Positions 10 through 10,400 of a DNA stretch of 11,436 bases are shown piece after piece. A program made the position numbers and the translations under genes. The DNA is from a virus. The stretch is taken from UHGV virus genome UHGV-1406243; one strand, 5' to 3'. Each line of letters begins with the position of its first letter. Within the stretch, counting starts at the first letter, position 1. The notes beneath the pieces were generated by a model that was not told the DNA's origin, made no database searches, and saw only the letters and a list, made by a program, of their open reading frames with translations.

Positions 10-95
10 TTTTATCATTTAGTGTTTTTTGCTGTTTCATAATGTTTCAGGCTGTGCATTATGTTTTTGATTATCAACAGATTTGTGATTTTCCT

Positions 96-1995: not shown

Positions 1996-2184
1996 TCAGT
2001 CTGGTTCAGTTCGTTGCCATACCTGCAATGAGCGCTTTTCCCTGTACTCTTTAAGGAATTGCTCAAGGGCAAAAGCACATGGCGCGAATCTTTCTGATTC
2101 ATGCTCTATCTTTCTGCGCCGTCTTTTCCGTGCCGGTGATAATGTTTTGGTCAATTCTTTATCGGTCATTGTGTTGTCCTGCAT
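1996..2184 (-). CDS. Hypothetical small basic protein (62 aa), possibly co-transcribed with the RHH gene
   Basis: ORF on the same strand and immediately downstream of the RHH gene, upstream of the minus-strand terminator. No convincing Shine-Dalgarno; arginine-rich stretch RKRRRRK. Confidence 0.3.
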   Translation of the reverse strand: MQDNTMTDKELTKTLSPARKRRRRKIEHESERFAPCAFALEQFLKEYREKRSLQVWQRTEPD

Positions 2185-2508: not shown

Positions 2509-2605
2509 CTTGTTGGCGCAAGGTGCAGAAACGACGAAACCCGGCAGTGCGCTAACACTAACCGGGCTTCTAACCACCAACGATAGCGAAAGTATCGAGG
2601 TAGCT

Positions 2606-3866: not shown

Positions 3867-4166
3867 ATGAAACTTAAATATTCTGGCTTAACTGCCAGTG
3901 GCAACACTCACCCTAAATTTACGCGCGGCGATATTTACCGCGACCAGTACGGCGGCACGGTAATGATTAAGGGCGTGGAAGAACGGCGCGTAACCTACCG
4001 CCGTGAAGGTTACGAATATGATTGCGTGATGCCTGTTTATCAGTTCCGGCGTGATTTTTCTCTGGTACAGACCGCGCCGCATAACGTGTCCACCAGCAAC
4101 GCCAGGGCACGGGCAAACATCCAGAAGCTGAAAACCATGATTAACGGATTCAGGGGTAAAAAATGA
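3867..4166 (+). CDS. Hypothetical protein (99 aa)
   Basis: ATG 3867 is preceded by GGAG. Its stop overlaps the primase start (ATGA at 4163..4166). Confidence 0.7.
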   Translation: MKLKYSGLTASGNTHPKFTRGDIYRDQYGGTVMIKGVEERRVTYRREGYEYDCVMPVYQFRRDFSLVQTAPHNVSTSNARARANIQKLKTMINGFRGKK

Positions 4167-5917
4167 AACTGGCACCGAACGTAAAACAGCAGTCACGCGG
4201 CATAAAACACAAAGAAACAGAAGTCATTATTTTTGCGGGTAGTGATGCCTGGTCACACGCAAAACAATGGCAGGAACATGACGCGCGTATGGCCGGAGAT
4301 AATGAGCCTCCTGTGTGGCTTGGGGAGCAGCAGTTATCCGAACTGGATAAGCTGCAAATTGTGCCGGAAGGCAGAAAATCCGTGCGCATATTCAGGGCCG
4401 GATATCTTGCGCCAGTAATGATAAAGGCGATTGGTCAGAAGCTGGCGGCGGCAGGCGTACAGGATGCAAATTTTTACCCTGATGGTATGCACGGTCAGAA
4501 GGTGGAGAACTGGCGCGAATATCTGGCCCGTGAGCGCCAGAATCTTTCTGATGGTCTGGTCATTGAGCTTCCGGTAAAGCAAAAGGCGCAACTTTCGCAG
4601 ATGGCGGACAGTGAGCGCGCGCAGCTGCTTGCCGATCGCTTTGATGGCGTTTGCGTACATCCTGAAAGTGAAATCGTTCACGTATGGCGCGGCGGGGTAT
4701 GGTGTCCGGTCAGCACAATGGAACTTAGCCGCGAAATGGTGGCGATCTATTCAGAGCACAGGGCCACTTTCAGCAAGCGCGTAATCAATAACGCCGTGGA
4801 AGCGTTAAAAGTTATTGCCGAACCAATGGGCGAGCCGTCCGGCGATTTGTTGCCGTTCGCCAATGGTGCGCTTGACCTGAAAACGGGGGAATTTTCCCCG
4901 CACACGCCGGAGAACTGGATCACCACGCACAACGGCATTGAGTACACGCCACCAGCACCAGGGGAGAACATCCGCGATAACGCGCCAAACTTTCATAAAT
5001 GGCTTGAGCACGCAGCCGGAAAAGACCCGCGCAAGATGATGCGTATATGTGCCGCGCTGTACATGATTATGGCGAACCGGTACGACTGGCAGATGTTTAT
5101 TGAGGCCACCGGAGACGGCGGGAGCGGTAAAAGTACATTCACACACATAGCCAGCCTTCTGGCAGGGAAACAGAACACGGTAAGCGCTGAAATGACATCG
5201 CTTGATGATGCTGGTGGACGTGCGCAGGTTGTCGGGAGTCGTCTTATCGTCCTGGCTGACCAGCCGAAATATACAGGCGAAGGAACGGGCATCAAGAAAA
5301 TCACGGGCGGTGACCCCGTGGAAATTAACCCGAAATACGAAAAGCGTTTCACGGCGGTAATCAGGGCGGTGGTGCTGGCGACCAACAATAACCCGATGAT
5401 ATTCACCGAACGGGCCGGAGGTGTGGCACGTCGTCGCGTGATTTTCCGTTTCGACAATATCGTCAGTGAGGCCGAAAAAGACAGGGAGCTACCGGAAAAG
5501 ATCGCGGCTGAAATCCCTGTCATTATCCGCCGATTGCTGGCGAACTTTACCGACCCTGAGAAGGCACGGGCTTTACTACTGGAACAGCGTGACGGTGATG
5601 AAGCTCTGGCAATAAAGCAACAGACGGATCCGGTTATTGAGTTTTGCCAGTTCCTGAATTTTCTGGAGGAAGCACGCGGCCTGATGATGGGCGGCGGTGG
5701 CGATTCAGTGAAGTACACGACCAGAAACAGCCTTTACCGCGTCTATCTGGCGTTTATGGCGTACGCAGGCAGGAGCAAACCGCTAAACGTAAATGACTTT
5801 GGCAAGGCTATGAAGCCAGCCGCGAAAGTTTACGGACATGAATATATTACGCGGAAAGTTAAGGGAGTAACGCAGACTAACGCAATAACAACAGACGAGT
5901 GCGACGCGTTTTTATAA
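4163..5917 (+). CDS. Replication initiator: P4 alpha-like primase/helicase (D5-type SF3 NTPase domain)
   Basis: 584-aa ORF. Walker A GDGGSGKST and Walker B-like RLIVLADQ are read directly in the C-terminal half. Gene size and the iteron array immediately downstream match satellite Pri-Rep / P4 alpha proteins. The N-terminal primase domain was not confirmed motif by motif. Confidence 0.85.
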   Translation: MKLAPNVKQQSRGIKHKETEVIIFAGSDAWSHAKQWQEHDARMAGDNEPPVWLGEQQLSELDKLQIVPEGRKSVRIFRAGYLAPVMIKAIGQKLAAAGVQDANFYPDGMHGQKVENWREYLARERQNLSDGLVIELPVKQKAQLSQMADSERAQLLADRFDGVCVHPESEIVHVWRGGVWCPVSTMELSREMVAIYSEHRATFSKRVINNAVEALKVIAEPMGEPSGDLLPFANGALDLKTGEFSPHTPENWITTHNGIEYTPPAPGENIRDNAPNFHKWLEHAAGKDPRKMMRICAALYMIMANRYDWQMFIEATGDGGSGKSTFTHIASLLAGKQNTVSAEMTSLDDAGGRAQVVGSRLIVLADQPKYTGEGTGIKKITGGDPVEINPKYEKRFTAVIRAVVLATNNNPMIFTERAGGVARRRVIFRFDNIVSEAEKDRELPEKIAAEIPVIIRRLLANFTDPEKARALLLEQRDGDEALAIKQQTDPVIEFCQFLNFLEEARGLMMGGGGDSVKYTTRNSLYRVYLAFMAYAGRSKPLNVNDFGKAMKPAAKVYGHEYITRKVKGVTQTNAITTDECDAFL

Positions 5918-5929
5918 TTTTTTGTAATT

Positions 5930-6160
5930 GCTGTCTACCCTGTCTACCTGAGTAAAGAAAAATACATTTAATTCAGTGCATTAAGTTAGGTAGATAGCCT
6001 TTTTTTACTGTCTACCCACTATCTACCCTCTCTACCTGATTTTACCTGAATCAGACAGGGAGGTAGACACGGGGTAGATAGTGGATAAAAGCACTCTACC
6101 CCGCTGAAAGCCGCGCCATTACTGGTATGAGGGCCACTAAGGTAGATAAGGTAGACAAGG
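5930..6160. other. Putative origin of replication: iteron array of YCTACC / GGTAGAY motifs with dyad organisation; duplicated at 6379..6609
   Basis: At least 11 copies of the core (T/C)CTACC. Direct copies lie at 5933..6048 (TGTCTACCCTGTCTACCTG, TGTCTACCC, ATCTACCC, TCTACCTG) and inverted copies at 6061..6160 (GGTAGACAC, GGTAGATAG, GGTAGATAAGGTAGACAAGG), centred near 6055. It sits directly downstream of the primase gene. Confidence 0.55.
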
Positions 6161-6205: not shown

Positions 6206-6262
6206 ATGCACACTTCAGGGAAATTTAATAAATCACTCAAAATGACTTTGGCAAGGCTATGA
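6206..6262 (+). pseudogene. Truncated duplicate of the start of the 92-aa gene (18 codons, then stop), created by the tandem duplication
   Basis: Same RBS and first 12 codons (MHTSGKFNKSLK) as the gene at 6655; the reading frame then runs into the duplicated primase 3' fragment and stops. Confidence 0.4.
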
Positions 6263-6654
6263 AGCCAGCCGCGAAAGTTTACGGACATGAATATATTACG
6301 CGGAAAGTTAAGGGAGTAACGCAGACTAACGCAATAACAACAGACGAGTGCGACGCGTTTTTATAATTTTTTGTAATTGCTGTCTACCCTGTCTACCTGA
6401 GTAAAGAAAAATACATTTAATTCAGTGCATTAAGTTAGGTAGATAGCCTTTTTTTACTGTCTACCCACTATCTACCCTCTCTACCTGATTTTACCTGAAT
6501 CAGACAGGGAGGTAGACACGGGGTAGATAGTGGATAAAAGCACTCTACCCCGCTGAAAGCCGCGCCATTACTGGTATGAGGGCCACTAAGGTAGATAAGG
6601 TAGACAAGGGGAGGCACAACTCAAAACTTTTTAAACGAGGGGGTAAAAATAAAT

Positions 6655-6933
6655 ATGCACACTTCAGGGAAATTTAATAAATCACTCAAAAAACGCAGAG
6701 ACAGAACAGAACCGAAATATCGCGCGTTAGACATGACAGAGCACGCTTTAAAGGTGGCAATCAGAACGATAGACCGCCACGCGGGGGAAGGATACGCGAA
6801 AGCACATCCCGAACTGATAAGCGCATTCATGACCACGACGGCGGCAAATTTTGCCACGCTGACAGAGCGGGAGATTGCCGAAGCGGAACAGGTAACAACC
6901 ATCAACGTTAAAACCGGAGAGGTGGAATCATGA
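6655..6933 (+). CDS. Hypothetical protein (92 aa)
   Basis: Strong RBS GAGGGGGT upstream; stop overlaps the ssb start (ATGA). Confidence 0.65.
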   Translation: MHTSGKFNKSLKKRRDRTEPKYRALDMTEHALKVAIRTIDRHAGEGYAKAHPELISAFMTTTAANFATLTEREIAEAEQVTTINVKTGEVES

Positions 6934-7352
6934 CAGCACAGATAGCAGCTTACGGGCGGCTGGTGGACGACCCGCAGGTAAAACAGACCAGCAAGGGCAC
7001 ACCGATGACGCTGGCGCGTATGGCGGTCCCCCTTCCGTGCAGCCAGGCAGATGACGGAACGGCGACGATGTGGTTATCCGTCCTGGCATTTGGCAGACAG
7101 GCCGAAGCACTGGAAAGGCACCGCAAGGGTGAACTCCTGAGCGTGGCGGGTAACATGCAGATCAGCCAGTGGACTGGGCAGAACGGAGAAACGCGGCAGG
7201 GCTGGCAGGTTATCGCAGACAGTGTAATCAGTGCGCGAACGGCGCGACTGGGCGGCAAAAAAGGTCAACAGGGCCAGGCTACTGACGCGCTGAACAGGGC
7301 AAAACAACAGGCGGGGAATGATGATCCGTACGGGGATAACATACCGTTTTAA
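6930..7352 (+). CDS. ssb: Single-stranded DNA-binding protein (short SSB with acidic C-terminal tip)
   Basis: OB-fold pattern comparable to E. coli SSB (IAAYGRLVDDPQVKQT..WLSVLAFGRQAEALERHRKGELLSVAGNMQISQWTGQNGETRQGWQV) and C-terminal DDPYGDNIPF matching the conserved D-D-D-I-P-F tail. Confidence 0.85.
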   Translation: MTAQIAAYGRLVDDPQVKQTSKGTPMTLARMAVPLPCSQADDGTATMWLSVLAFGRQAEALERHRKGELLSVAGNMQISQWTGQNGETRQGWQVIADSVISARTARLGGKKGQQGQATDALNRAKQQAGNDDPYGDNIPF

Positions 7353-7390: not shown

Positions 7391-7470
7391 ACGGGTCCTC
7401 CTGGCGGGGTGGGCCTGAACACGGGGCGGGAAGCGCGGAAAAAAGCGCATTTTTGTGATTTTATCGTCAT
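7388..7470 (+). other. Degenerate cos-like sequence (cosQ-like TTTACGGGTCCT, then ACGGGGCGGGAAGCGCGG in place of the lambda cosN core)
   Basis: Shares TTTACGGGTCCT and ACGGGGCGG with the cos at 9830..9900, but the 12-nt cohesive-end core is disrupted. Likely a relic or a divergent site. Confidence 0.35.
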
Positions 7471-7565
7471 CATCATCATGAGCGTAATTTATTGTTTTTA
7501 ATTGTTTTGATGCAAAAAAGATGATGGTTGTGGTTAATTTTCGTTCGACATCTTTGCAGGCAGAT

Positions 7566-7606
7566 AAAAAAGCCCGATAAGGTCAGAGGTGGCTTATCGG
7601 GCTTTT
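7566..7606. terminator. Bidirectional rho-independent terminator (10-bp perfect stem GCCCGATAAG / CTTATCGGGC, A-run upstream, T-run downstream)
   Basis: Read directly: AAAAAAGCCCGATAAGgtcagaggtggCTTATCGGGCTTTTG. Confidence 0.6.
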
Positions 7607-7683
7607 GCATATGAGGCTTTTTGGTGCACTGACACACATGAGCGGGATCATCATTTCATAATTTGCAACACAACTCAATATCA

Positions 7684-7732
7684 TTGCACAAAACGCAATC
7701 CTGATTATAATCAGAGCTGGATGAACATCCAG
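7684..7732 (+). promoter_or_regulatory. Candidate promoter of the capsid operon (-35 TTGCAC 7684..7689, 16-bp spacer, perfect -10 TATAAT 7706..7711) with a 7-bp inverted repeat CTGGATG-AA-CATCCAG (7717..7732) just downstream
   Basis: Hexamers and palindrome are read directly; the location between the upstream terminator and the RBS of the 68-aa gene fits an operator-controlled promoter. Confidence 0.45.
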
Positions 7733-7767
7733 TTATGATTTTTTAAGTCGAAGAGGAATTTCTTACT

Positions 7768-7974
7768 ATGGCTGAAGAGAAAAAAGGCGGTGTTTCGGTG
7801 TACATAAGCCCCGAAATCGTGGAGGTGCTCAAGCAGCGCCACAAAAAAAACTATGAGGCTGGCGTGGCGGCTGGACTGGATCCGCTGATGACGCCGGAGC
7901 CGTCGATAGGTTCACTTGTACGCTCTTATTTACTTGCGGCGCTTGGGATGCATAAAAATTATGGGGGTGAATAA
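7768..7974 (+). CDS. Hypothetical protein (68 aa), translationally coupled to the major capsid gene
   Basis: RBS AGAGGA upstream; its stop TAA overlaps the capsid ATG (TAATG). No recognisable similarity by eye. Confidence 0.65.
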   Translation: MAEEKKGGVSVYISPEIVEVLKQRHKKNYEAGVAAGLDPLMTPEPSIGSLVRSYLLAALGMHKNYGGE

Positions 7975-9029
7975 TGGCAGGCAAAGCAACGGCACTTAAC
8001 ACTAACCAGCTTTTCATGTACCTGAATCGCGGGGATATTGCGGATTTTAAATTCAGCCCTCTGTTTACTACGCTGTTTTTCCCGAACGTGGCGACATTCA
8101 GCACGCAAAACATCATGCTGGATACCCTGGACATTGAAGAAGTCACCATGTCGGCGTTTTGTTCGCCTATGGTGGGTAGCCAGGTTCAGCGCGATAAAGG
8201 GTACGAAACCAGCACGATTAAACCTGGCTACATGAAGCCAAAGCACGAAATCGATCCAACGAAAACCATCATGCGCATGGCTGGAGAAGATCCGGCACAG
8301 CTTAACGACCCTACCTATCGCCGTATGCGCCTGATTACTGGCAATATGCGCCGCCAGATAAACGCCATAAAAGCGCGCGTGGAATGGCTGGCGGTAAATG
8401 CGGTAACGACCGGAAAAAACATCATTGAGGGCGAAGGCATAGAGCGCTATGAAATCGACTGGAAGATACCGGAAAAAAACATCATAGAGCAGGCCGACGG
8501 GAAAAAATGGTCAGCGCAGGACAAAGAAACCCACGATCCAATCTATGATATCGAACTATACGCCGATCAGGCTGGTTGCCCCGCAAACGTCATGATTATG
8601 GGCGCTGAGGTATGGCGAACGTTACGCAGCTTTAAAAAATTCCGTGAGCTGTACGATCTTTCCCGTGGTTCAGAATCCGCCGCCGAACTGGCCTGTAAAA
8701 ACCTGGGCGAAGTGGTGAGCTTTAAAGGCTATCTTGGTGATCTGGCCCTTATCGTCTATTCCGGCAAATACACTGACAGCGATGGTACCGAAAAATATTT
8801 CCTTGAGCCTGATTTGCTGGTCCTAGGTAACACCAACAATAAAGGGCTGGTGGCCTATGGTGCGATAATGGATCAGGAAGCGGTAAGAACGGGCGCAACA
8901 CAAAACATGTTTTACCCGAAAAACTGGATTGAGGACGGCGATCCGGCGATTGAGTACGTGCAGACACACAGTGCACCGCAGCCGGTACCGGCAGATATTC
9001 GCAAATTTGTTACCGTCAAAATTGGTTAA
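7974..9029 (+). CDS. Major capsid protein, phage lambda gpE family
   Basis: Multiple collinear blocks match lambda gpE as I recall it: FKFSPLFTTLFF vs FKFDPLFLRLFF; PGYMKPKHEIDP vs PGYVKPKHEVNP; EDPAQLNDPTYRRMR vs EDPQNLADPAYRRRR; RGSESAAELACKNLGEVVSFKGYLGDLALIVYSGKY vs RGSNSELETAVKDLGKAVSYKGMYGDVAIVVYSGQY; YPKNWIEDGDPAIEY..SAP vs YPKNWVTTGDPAREF..SAP. Length 351 aa vs 341 aa. Confidence 0.92.
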   Translation: MAGKATALNTNQLFMYLNRGDIADFKFSPLFTTLFFPNVATFSTQNIMLDTLDIEEVTMSAFCSPMVGSQVQRDKGYETSTIKPGYMKPKHEIDPTKTIMRMAGEDPAQLNDPTYRRMRLITGNMRRQINAIKARVEWLAVNAVTTGKNIIEGEGIERYEIDWKIPEKNIIEQADGKKWSAQDKETHDPIYDIELYADQAGCPANVMIMGAEVWRTLRSFKKFRELYDLSRGSESAAELACKNLGEVVSFKGYLGDLALIVYSGKYTDSDGTEKYFLEPDLLVLGNTNNKGLVAYGAIMDQEAVRTGATQNMFYPKNWIEDGDPAIEYVQTHSAPQPVPADIRKFVTVKIG

Positions 9030-9041
9030 CGGGGGGATTCT

Positions 9042-9377
9042 ATGGACACTCCATACATTGAGTTATTTGCAGGCAGTCAGCGGGTCGCCACGACGCTGGT
9101 ACATTTTGCCGCTGATGCTGGCGTTATTCAGGAATTTACCCCGCTGATGCTGGCAGACAATGGCGAGTTTAAGCCGTGGGATGGTCAGGAATCTGGCAAG
9201 GCTGTTTATCTGACCTCGTACCCTGTGGACACGTCAAAGCAGAAATCAGCACAGTGTTACAAGACGGGGATTTTCAATATTGCCGCCGTTAACTGGCCTG
9301 AGAGCGTCGACACCGATGCGAAAAAATGCGCCGCCTTTGCGGGTTCCGGCGTATCCGTTCAGCCGCTGGCCCGATAA
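9042..9377 (+). CDS. Head decoration protein, phage lambda gpD family
   Basis: 111 aa vs 110 aa for lambda D. Blocks TPLMLADNGEFKPWDG vs TPLMLDTSSRKLVAWDG and YKTGIFNIAAVNWPESVDTDAKKCAAFAGSGVSVQ vs [44 protein letters not shown] upstream. Confidence 0.88.
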   Translation: MDTPYIELFAGSQRVATTLVHFAADAGVIQEFTPLMLADNGEFKPWDGQESGKAVYLTSYPVDTSKQKSAQCYKTGIFNIAAVNWPESVDTDAKKCAAFAGSGVSVQPLAR

Positions 9378-9389
9378 GCAGGGGGAACG

Positions 9390-9803
9390 ATGGCAACGAA
9401 TGAAAGCGTCATGACGCTACCGCTGGCGAGTAAATTTAAAGCCGAAGCGCGGGCAATGGCTGACAGAGGTTTATCAACCTACGAGGCCGTATATCAACTC
9501 AACAAACTGGAAGAGCAGGACAAGCCGCGCGCTGATGCGATTATGGCGCTTCATGAACATAACGACTATCAGCCGCTGTTACGTGCAATGGCAAACGTGC
9601 CATGTATTAGCGTCGATAATGCTCGTGAAATCCTGAACATGACCATAGAGCAGGAGCGCCCAAAGGTTGCGCCGGAGCTTACCGCAGCCTTTGAAAACTT
9701 TATGGACATGCACAGCCCGAAAGCCGTATCACCCGGCATGGCATACGACGGCAGAAACCAGGGCGATGAAGGCGACGTCGATCGCATACTGAAAACCATC
9801 TGA
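9390..9803 (+). CDS. Hypothetical protein (137 aa), last gene of the capsid module
   Basis: RBS GGGGG upstream; followed by a terminator. No recognisable motif by eye. Confidence 0.7.
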   Translation: MATNESVMTLPLASKFKAEARAMADRGLSTYEAVYQLNKLEEQDKPRADAIMALHEHNDYQPLLRAMANVPCISVDNAREILNMTIEQERPKVAPELTAAFENFMDMHSPKAVSPGMAYDGRNQGDEGDVDRILKTI

Positions 9804-9965: not shown

Positions 9966-10400
9966 ATGATTGATAAAGCTTGTTTTGTAAGTCAGCAGGA
10001 AATAGCTGAACATTTCAAGGTTAACAGAACCACTATTCGCGCATGGACCAAACAGGGGATGCCGTATCTTAATGCGGATCGCGGAAAGTCTGGCGGTTAT
10101 CACATCGGGCATACATTGCTTTGGTCTTCAGGTAAAAGCCGTCTTGAGACCATCAGATATCACGTAGAAACCAGTGCGCTGGAAAAAATTATGTTTGCCA
10201 GGCTGCTTTCATCTGAGCGTGACGAGTACTCCAGTGAAGAAACAGAACATCGATTTGATGAAGGTTTGCAGATTTACGGCTATTCACCGGAAGATGTGAG
10301 CAAGGCACGAAATAAAATGGCTGGCTTTCTGGCTGGGTGGCGTCATGCCATAAGCGTTCGCCGTGCCAGCATGGAGCAATCAGCCGATACAGAACAGTAA
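9966..10400 (+). CDS. Terminase small subunit homologue, lambda Nu1-like N-terminal DNA-binding domain with a divergent, shorter C-terminal part
   Basis: VSQQEIAEHFKVNRTTIRAWTKQGMPYLNADRGKSGG aligns with lambda Nu1 VNKKQLADIFGASIRTIQNWQEQGMPVLRGGGKGNEV. 144 aa vs 181 aa; I could not align the C-terminal half to Nu1. Sits directly downstream of the cos site. Confidence 0.8.
   Translation: MIDKACFVSQQEIAEHFKVNRTTIRAWTKQGMPYLNADRGKSGGYHIGHTLLWSSGKSRLETIRYHVETSALEKIMFARLLSSERDEYSSEETEHRFDEGLQIYGYSPEDVSKARNKMAGFLAGWRHAISVRRASMEQSADTEQ

Follow-up and report, generated by a model that had tools for sequence, protein, structure and literature searches.

The consensus of the E. coli SOS box is TACTG(TA)5CAGTA (PMC6590174). 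Eighteen LexA boxes, among them those of ruvA and cho, have been published together (PMC3009722, Table 4), and in tightly LexA-controlled genes the boxes overlap the start site (PMC8072944). Among phage satellites, operon I of the staphylococcal pathogenicity islands (SaPIs), which is a packaging and interference module, is under LexA according to Ubeda et al. (2007), cited in PMC5052747. Islands of the type considered here are EcCICFT073 and the related phage-inducible chromosomal islands (PICIs) (Fillol-Salom et al., 2018, 2019). In EcCICFT073, c1499 and c1500 are the capsid and decoration homologues, and AlpA activates the early genes, with induction of alpA being dependent on the helper and not on SOS (PMC6092414). 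The EcCICFT073 and Rpp papers describe no capsid-module promoter, operator or SOS control, and LexA occurs in them in the reference lists only. A literature search found no paper that combines PICI, LexA and SOS box, and no such report for Gram-negative PICIs.

The locus described here shares its gene order, and its capsid, decoration and Rpp-like genes, with EcCICFT073 and the related PICIs. In front of its capsid module it carries a predicted LexA box, which has the same 20-bp CTG-N10-CAG form at a promoter as the boxes of ruvAB and cho, and a similar score. It differs from these in being located on a mobile satellite, with predicted control of capsid homologues rather than DNA-repair genes, and in lying inside a longer inverted repeat of 32 bp that is followed by a T-run. 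The parallel with SaPI operon I is that a late morphogenesis and interference module downstream of the ori would in both cases be placed under the host SOS repressor, and not under the island's own master regulator. However, the host, island lineage and gene content are unrelated, control in the present case is predicted from sequence alone, and the rest of the E. coli island is activated by AlpA, not by relief of Stl repression.

The window, by which is meant the whole stretch of 11,436 nucleotides that was analysed, is an EcCICFT073-type PICI of E. coli. This identification is made because its int, alpA, D5-type primase, ssb, and gpE and gpD homologues match the published description. All of the genes listed are on the + strand:

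185-1399, + strand: tyrosine integrase (int)
1538-1726, + strand: regulator of the Phage_AlpA family (alpA; 62 aa, PF05930)
4163-5917, + strand: D5-type primase
6930-7352, + strand: SSB, followed by an intergenic gap and then the capsid module
7768-7974, + strand: orf68, first gene of the unit, coding for a 68-aa protein of unknown function (phrog_3255)
7974-9029, + strand: major capsid protein homologue of the lambda gpE family, c1499-like (PF03864, E 4.8e-52; phrog_29)
9042-9377, + strand: head decoration protein homologue of the lambda gpD family, c1500-like (PF02924, E 2.9e-17)
9390-9803, + strand: scaffold-like 137-aa protein (phrog_1999; positions 495-567 of the 583 of the phrog_53 profile)
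9966-10400, + strand: HTH protein resembling a small terminase subunit or Rpp

The 137-aa protein resembles the C-terminal scaffold part of head maturation proteases, and its gene is the last one clearly within the capsid unit. A query of 561 bp (7440-8000) was 100% identical to an island inserted at tqsA in E. coli O18:H1 CFSAN067215, and the region 7600-7990 is carried by about 600 of 5,426 complete E. coli genomes.

The intergenic region in front of orf68 has a G+C content of 37%, and contains the following elements of a transcription unit:

7561-7613, both strands: bidirectional intrinsic terminator (inverted repeat I1), with an A-run before the stem and a U-run after it
7684-7689, + strand: −35 element TTGCAC, matching TTGACA at three of six positions (TTG)
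7690-7705, + strand: spacer of 16 bp
7706-7711, + strand: −10 element TATAAT, matching at six of six positions, with a predicted start at about 7716-7720
7701-7714: perfect 14-bp palindrome CTGATTA/TAATCAG around the −10 element (inverted repeat I7; CTG-N8-CAG)
7717-7723, 7724-7725 and 7726-7732: CTGGATG, AA and CATCCAG, the parts of a second palindrome
7751-7757, + strand: Shine-Dalgarno sequence AAGAGGA of orf68, the same in all relatives including group B

A first-pass annotation of this DNA had described a strong bidirectional terminator, a near-consensus promoter and, immediately behind it, a 7-bp inverted repeat operator. The TTGCAC, the 16-bp spacer, the TATAAT and CTGGATG-AA-CATCCAG are indeed all present at these positions, between the terminator and the start of orf68 at 7768. 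The strength of the terminator was also borne out: its folding energies are −25.6 kcal/mol (+ strand) and −20.8 kcal/mol (− strand), with z scores of −4.1 and −4.2, and none of 200 shuffled sequences folded as well. It would close the replication/ssb unit and insulate the capsid module. Two of the descriptions were too generous, in that a −35 element matching at three of six positions can hardly be called near consensus, and that a gap of 5 nt separates the palindrome from the −10 element. The promoter lies below the threshold of the promoter scan and is therefore not listed there, because its −35 element matches at only these three positions.

When the window was simulated with a Markov model, 29% of the simulations contained the pattern TTGNNN-16..18-TATAAT at some place, so that it is the position and the conservation, and not the pattern, on which the promoter call is based. 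Between about 7644 and 7714 the sequence is nearly constant across E. coli, the divergent group B and Salmonella, while further upstream it is unrelated; in each lineage there is a terminator-like hairpin just upstream of the conserved block. The 16-bp spacing, the TTGC of the −35 element and the −10 element are kept across lineages. The −35 element varies among relatives as TTGCAT, TTGCGC, TTGCAA and TTGCGA; TATAAT is the same throughout group A and in Salmonella, and is TAAAAT in group B, in which the stretch between the −10 element and the ribosome-binding site is also different. The first-pass annotation's assignment of the capsid module to a transcription unit of its own is thus supported, since there is a strong terminator upstream and a −35/−10 block that is conserved between diverged flanks. 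The start site near 7718 is predicted from the promoter elements.

Other candidates for the promoter region were considered and set aside. Judged by eye, the spacings do not fit sigma-54, lambda CII or IHF. LexA can be dismissed as a ligand of the palindrome around the −10 element, where CTG-N8-CAG has the wrong spacing; the 12-bp core of this palindrome (TGATTATAATCA) is nearly constant among relatives, and the pair 7701/7714 is seen in all four combinations. The region may also resemble a CytR half-site. A search of 7400-7800 against Rfam gave no match, and neither the alpA promoter nor any other part of the island was found to have noteworthy k-mers in common with the capsid promoter.

The palindrome behind the −10 element has the geometry of an SOS box:

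7715-7734: predicted LexA (SOS) box AGCTGGATGAACATCCAGTT, with the core CTG-N10-CAG at 7717-7732

Both triplets of the core (CTGGATGAACATCCAG) are intact, and 13 of the 20 positions of the 20-mer agree with the consensus. The ruvA box (CGCTGGATATCTATCCAGCA) has the same arms, CTGGAT..ATCCAG, and those of the cho box (CACTGGATAGATAACCAGCA) are close. The predicted box begins 4 nt past the −10 hexamer and occupies the positions 34-53 nt ahead of the orf68 ATG, so that it spans about −4 to +17 relative to the predicted start. Both arms have CTGG/CCAG in place of the preferred CTGT/ACAG, and because of this the predicted affinity for LexA is intermediate.

A heterology-type index was calculated with a symmetrised count matrix, rebuilt from the 18 published boxes (PMC3009722, Table 4) and not identical to the original Lewis matrix. 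With this rebuilt matrix the site at 7715-7734 has a score of 8.44. When the 18 published boxes were each scored with the leave-one-out procedure, the median was 7.3 and the range 2.0-17.0, with 8.6 for ruvA and 8.0 for cho. The second-best LexA-type site in the window scored 17.0. A site as good as 8.44 was found in one of 300 first-order Markov simulations, and 817 kb of unrelated viral contigs contained four sites with scores of 10.2 or less, none of them as low as 8.44. The first-pass annotation had suggested looking for the palindrome elsewhere in the island; the perfect 16-mer proved to be unique in the window, where 0.29 chance matches with up to three mismatches would be expected.

Relatives of the locus were collected in four ways: from complete E. 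coli genomes; from IMG/VR and metagenomes, using a DNA pattern upstream of the promoter; with the capsid protein alone as query, which is independent of the promoter; and from Salmonella, via homologues of orf68. A species-representative genome collection gave no match to the capsid-protein query or to a DNA pattern. Of the 80 capsid-anchored loci, 79 keep the box; in these it precedes the capsid ATG by 259-260 nt and scores 6.1-10.2. The remaining locus has an insertion of 1 nt and belongs to a contig in which there are further indels. In the Salmonella relatives, whose orf68 is only 54-56% identical and whose flanks have diverged, the promoter is kept as TTGCGA-16-TATAAT, and it is followed, at the same distance from TATAAT as in the window, by the box GACTGGATGAAAATCCAGTA (score 7.45). 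Group B, exemplified by L006, a PICI embedded among prophage late genes, keeps the promoter block; its loci contain no LexA-type box, the scores being 29-33.

The variation within the box is informative. CTG and CAG are constant in all 24 distinct E. coli variants and in the two Salmonella loci, and CTGGAT, CAT and CAG are constant across the 24 variants. The positions that vary in E. coli are 7 (G/A), 8-9 (AA/TT) and 13 (C/A), to which Salmonella adds position 10 (C/A). The substitutions G7A and C13A both weaken the hairpin that the palindrome could form as RNA, neither is compensated, and each puts the LexA consensus base in place of one that departs from it: the score falls to 6.4 with C13A, and by about 1.3 with G7A when like-for-like flanks are compared. 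This is what would be expected of a LexA site, and not of a structure selected for pairing. The pattern of natural variation DISCRIMINATES between the LexA and the hairpin models, because the variants that break the hairpin approach the LexA consensus.

It is concluded that 7684-7734 is probably a sigma-70 promoter for the capsid module that is repressed by host LexA over its start. LexA is the likeliest ligand because of the CTG-N10-CAG arrangement, the score, which is like that of validated boxes (8.4, compared to 8.6 and 8.0 for ruvAB and cho), and the LexA-like natural variation. The operator of the first-pass annotation is in the right position, but the repressor would be supplied by the host, and would not be an immunity repressor of the island or, as was suggested there, a factor encoded by the helper. 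The weak −35 element and the statistically ordinary promoter pattern have to be counted against this conclusion.

The palindrome is also part of a longer structure:

7709-7744, + strand: extended inverted repeat and T-run (arms 7709-7723 and 7726-7740; TTTTTT at 7739-7744)

The inverted repeat extends to arms of 15 nt that are 87% complementary. This extension, the TTTTTT and the palindrome around TATAAT do not appear in the first-pass annotation. As RNA, the repeat would form a stem (7709-7740) running into a U-run (7739-7744), and it is listed as a terminator in the terminator scan. The segment 7700-7750 folds with −14.6 kcal/mol (z −3.5). By these features 7709-7744 looks like a terminator for any RNA begun upstream of 7709. 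An RNA begun at the predicted start (about 7718) has no significant structure (z 0.24).

Could the palindrome then be mainly an RNA hairpin, acting as a second intrinsic terminator or a leader attenuator, with its likeness to a LexA box incidental? The transcripts affected would come from upstream, or from a candidate promoter TTCATA-18-TATCAT at 7655-7684, which scores 9 of 12 in the promoter scan. The hairpin 7709-7740 has a free energy of −13.4 kcal/mol in the window, and reaches −17.7 to −17.8 kcal/mol in variants whose 14-bp stem pairs perfectly. Salmonella, in spite of an indel, still has the T-run and the outer arms AATCAT/ATGATT, and the complementarity outside the 20-mer (7709-7714 with 7735-7740) is left unexplained by LexA binding. 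The covariation is weak: two of the 14 pairs are changed on both sides, a count attained by 11 of 500 shuffles. The pair 7714/7735 occurs as T-A, G-C or C-G, and A-to-G changes lead to G-U pairs, but 7714/7735 is mismatched in 11 of the 24 variants, and it is the left arm that drifts, the right one being nearly constant. Complementary changes can moreover arise in quasipalindromes by template switching, without selection. The uncompensated substitutions G7A and C13A count against a selected stem, as does the absence of the hairpin from group B (about −5 kcal/mol), and a strong terminator is already present 100 nt upstream. Constant CTG and CAG would not be expected of a hairpin, and neither would such close agreement with the boxes of ruvA and cho. 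We therefore regard a mainly structural role as unlikely. A hairpin is compatible with LexA binding, however, and it is reasonable to combine the two, such that the DNA would be a LexA operator and the same sequence would stop read-through transcripts.

The conserved block contains a further pair of symmetrical elements, which are related 17-bp dyads, 30 bp apart:

7653-7669: degenerate dyad site 1, ATTTCA-TAATT-TGCAAC, centred at about −57 (ATTGCA-N5-TGCAAT with two mismatches)
7683-7699: dyad site 2, ATTGCA-CAAAA-CGCAAT, overlapping the −35 element and the spacer

Both are conserved in group A, group B and Salmonella. Site 2 is perfect in most relatives (ATTGCA-YAAAA-TGCAAT). In Salmonella it is GTTGCG-AAAAA-TGCAAC, in which the outer A..T has become G..C with the symmetry kept; in L005 it is GTTGCG-CAAAA-TGCAAT, with the left side alone changed. 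The presence of two conserved TTGCA dyads suggests a second DNA-binding regulator as a candidate. The motif was not found elsewhere in the island, where the lone other TTGC..GCAA dyad, at 2013, lies in a terminator-like hairpin. Among the matches listed from IMG/VR, it occurs outside PICIs only in coding DNA of unrelated low-GC contigs, and in no enterobacterial phage context.

These dyads bear on two further explanations. The palindrome at the start could be the operator of a dimeric regulator other than LexA, encoded by the island (AlpA, or orf68 as a ribbon-helix-helix autorepressor) or by the helper. It has perfect dyad symmetry at the start site, and the nearby conserved dyads imply that some non-LexA factor probably binds the promoter. 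The AlphaFold2 model of orf68 has an extended N-terminal segment, which is conserved, followed by two helices (pLDDT 74), and this is compatible with a ribbon-helix-helix fold; a Foldseek comparison with the PDB gave no significant fold match, however (best E 0.65), and the sequence had no Pfam match and no PDB sequence match. In addition the palindrome is found nowhere else in the island, and blastn of 7640-7770 against a phage collection returned nothing meaningful, only short matches with E of about 1 or worse. Outside PICIs, the ATTGCA dyad is confined, among the matches listed, to unrelated low-GC coding DNA, and AlpA alleles differ among islands that have the same box (L005 compared to L002-L004). 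The natural variants drift toward the LexA consensus and not toward a private one, and a non-LexA operator is accordingly judged quite improbable. Another suggestion is a Q-type antitermination cassette, in which transcription would start at the 7655-7684 promoter, TATAAT would cause a sigma-dependent pause, loading would take place at the TTGCA dyads, and a helper Q protein or an island factor would allow the terminator formed by the hairpin and U-run to be bypassed. Such cassettes of lambdoid Q and P. aeruginosa AlpA likewise have a promoter, a −10-like element and a hairpin with U-run in a short stretch (PMC9371919); here they follow in this order within 90 bp, and the spacer and upstream sequence are conserved beyond the needs of a plain promoter. 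On the other side, comparison of the island AlpA with the PDB revealed no antiterminator homologue, the hairpin is missing in group B, and the spacing is atypical, with the −10-like element at about +15 to +20 compared to −1 to +5 at the P. aeruginosa alpB promoter. The likeness to lambda PR' and the 6S region consists of one 13-mer (CAAAATGCAATCC), which is present in most PICI variants but not in the window, and was treated as chance. Antitermination of this kind is therefore considered very unlikely.

The island AlpA was itself rejected as an antiterminator of the P. aeruginosa AlpA type. The two have a name in common, and at E values up to 1 the sole PDB match of the 62-aa island protein (Phage_AlpA) is a small AlpA-family chain of 73 aa (8c3t). 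P. aeruginosa AlpA must be far larger, because its DNA-reading residues extend up to position 142 (PMC9371919). A compound switch of 130 bp, in place of a plain LexA operator, would combine several of these elements: a dyad-binding factor, possibly supplied by the helper, would load on polymerase coming from the 7655-7684 promoter, the polymerase would pause at TATAAT, the hairpin and U-run would then be read through, and LexA would be a second lock. If this were true, the satellite would have captured Q-like antitermination for its capsid module, but we give it only a very slim chance. That the palindrome and the hexamers arose by chance in AT-rich intergenic DNA and have no regulatory role is hardly credible: the promoter pattern is expected in 29% of random sequences of this size, and the region is 37% G+C, but E. 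coli, the helper-embedded lineage and Salmonella all keep the whole block between flanks that have diverged, and the LexA-type score is far outside the background.

The LexA-repressed promoter that we prefer would function as follows. The promoter at 7684-7711 would drive orf68 and the genes for the gpE-like capsid, gpD-like decoration and scaffold-like proteins. In an undamaged cell, a host LexA dimer on 7715-7734 would cover the start and block RNA polymerase. DNA damage would activate RecA, leading to self-cleavage of LexA and opening of the capsid promoter, so that this promoter would respond to the same signal that induces lambdoid helper prophages. The hairpin and T-run (7709-7744) may also stop read-through transcripts, while RNAs from the promoter itself would be without the 5′ arm of the hairpin. 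SOS is not the master switch of the island, because the published induction of alpA is helper-dependent and not SOS-dependent (PMC6092414).

The one published SOS RNA-seq experiment that was found, on the O157:H7 strain PA20, covers a Sakai-type Sp7, which has an HK97-type capsid module and is without this promoter. Islands of the Sp7 type (at roxA-phoQ in Sakai-type strains) have the left half in common with the islands discussed here, and a different region upstream of the capsid module. The experiment is therefore uninformative for the present module, given that both the capsid module and its upstream region are different.

LexA-regulated promoters are well known as a kind, and what is new is the predicted location of one on a Gram-negative PICI. 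The prediction is relevant mainly to research on phage satellites and on the SOS regulon. It provides a handle on the capsid module, in which no phenotype has as yet been seen after deletion of the c1499 capsid homologue (PMC6092414). Provided that the box is functional, the module of capsid homologues in Gram-negative PICIs would be coupled to SOS repression by the host, with the remainder of the island waiting for helper-induced AlpA. The unrelated SaPIs, with operon I under LexA, have the same split logic, so that regulation would have converged. SOS-inducing antibiotics would then also switch on satellite genes in any strain that carries such an island, whether or not a helper is present.

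Two related islands occupy the same chromosomal site, roxA-phoQ, namely Sakai Sp7 of E. coli O157:H7 (L085:34712-50000) and the PICI relative L002, and the segment between int and ssb, both genes included, is common to the two, together with a PerC-family gene. Beyond this segment, L002 carries a gpE/gpD-type module with the capsid promoter of the window, whereas Sakai Sp7 carries an HK97-type capsid/portal/protease/terminase module, preceded by an unrelated upstream region. The promoter block (about 7644-7714 in the window) is immediately preceded by the boundary of the swap between the two capsid modules.

Within and upstream of the -35 element of this promoter are two conserved TTGCA-type dyads, at window 7653-7669 and 7683-7699, spaced by 30 bp. 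In Salmonella the outer pair of the second dyad is changed from A..T to G..C, with the symmetry retained. The half-site is similar to the CytR octamer, AATGCAAC. A 13-mer, CAAAATGCAATCC, is common to most PICI spacer variants and to lambda (L084:917-935, where the 6S RNA is encoded, a short distance upstream of tR'), and the window departs from it by a C for T at 7693. The sharing between lambda and the PICIs is probably a matter of chance.

The sole other TTGC..GCAA dyad of the island is in a hairpin at window 2009-2033, GTTCGTTGCCATACCTGCAATGAGC, which is followed by GCTTTTCC and is kept in three PICI relatives (L001, L002 and L004). This hairpin, within the Icd-like region, looks like a terminator. 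In the Icd-like/long-ORF region Rfam also gives a weak hit for the antitoxin RNA SymR (window 2533-2605, minus strand; 33.3 bits, E 0.0035), which does not reach the gathering score of 61.

A sequence similar to lambda cosN (GGGCGGCGACCT) is present at window 7420-7440. It reads ACGGGGCGGGAAGCGCGG, and counting from GGGCGG it agrees with cosN at 8 of 12 positions; two cos sites have been reported for EcCICFT073. The segment at 7440-7556 is found as a separate module at other places in other E. coli genomes. The region that follows the primase gene, the presumed ori, contains a tandem duplication whose copies are 100% identical and repeat with a period of 449 bp (window 5791-6149 and 6240-6598). 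In the closest genome, L001 (NZ_CP028320.1), this sequence occurs once, and pri is separated from the next gene by 289 bp there as against 738 bp in the window.

Four related islands contain LexA-like boxes elsewhere, as listed here.

LexA-like boxes elsewhere in related PICIs (a lower score is better)
L002:2422-2441, LexA-like box between int and alpA, score 8.2, right arm CAC, not CAG
L085:36261-36280 (Sakai Sp7), LexA-like box between int and alpA, score 8.2, right arm CAC, not CAG
L010:2317-2336, strong LexA-like box upstream of the capsid promoter (distance about 5 kb), score 5.8
L023:8857-8876, strong LexA-like box upstream of the capsid promoter (distance about 5 kb), score 7.0

The window, in contrast to these four, has no such additional box, and compared with L002 the spacer between its int and alpA genes is shorter by about 227 bp. 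In the published RNA-seq of strain PA20, the Sp7 alpA-region genes ECs1575-1577 were up by log2 1.2-1.9 after 5 h with an SOS-inducing drug; alpA induction has been described as independent of SOS (PMC6092414).

The divergent relative L006 (NZ_CP076279.1) retains the promoter block, while the LexA box (7715-7734 in the window) and the hairpin (7709-7744) are absent. This island (locus 1300-11600) is flanked by prophage head-tail joining and baseplate/tail genes, and is embedded in a helper.
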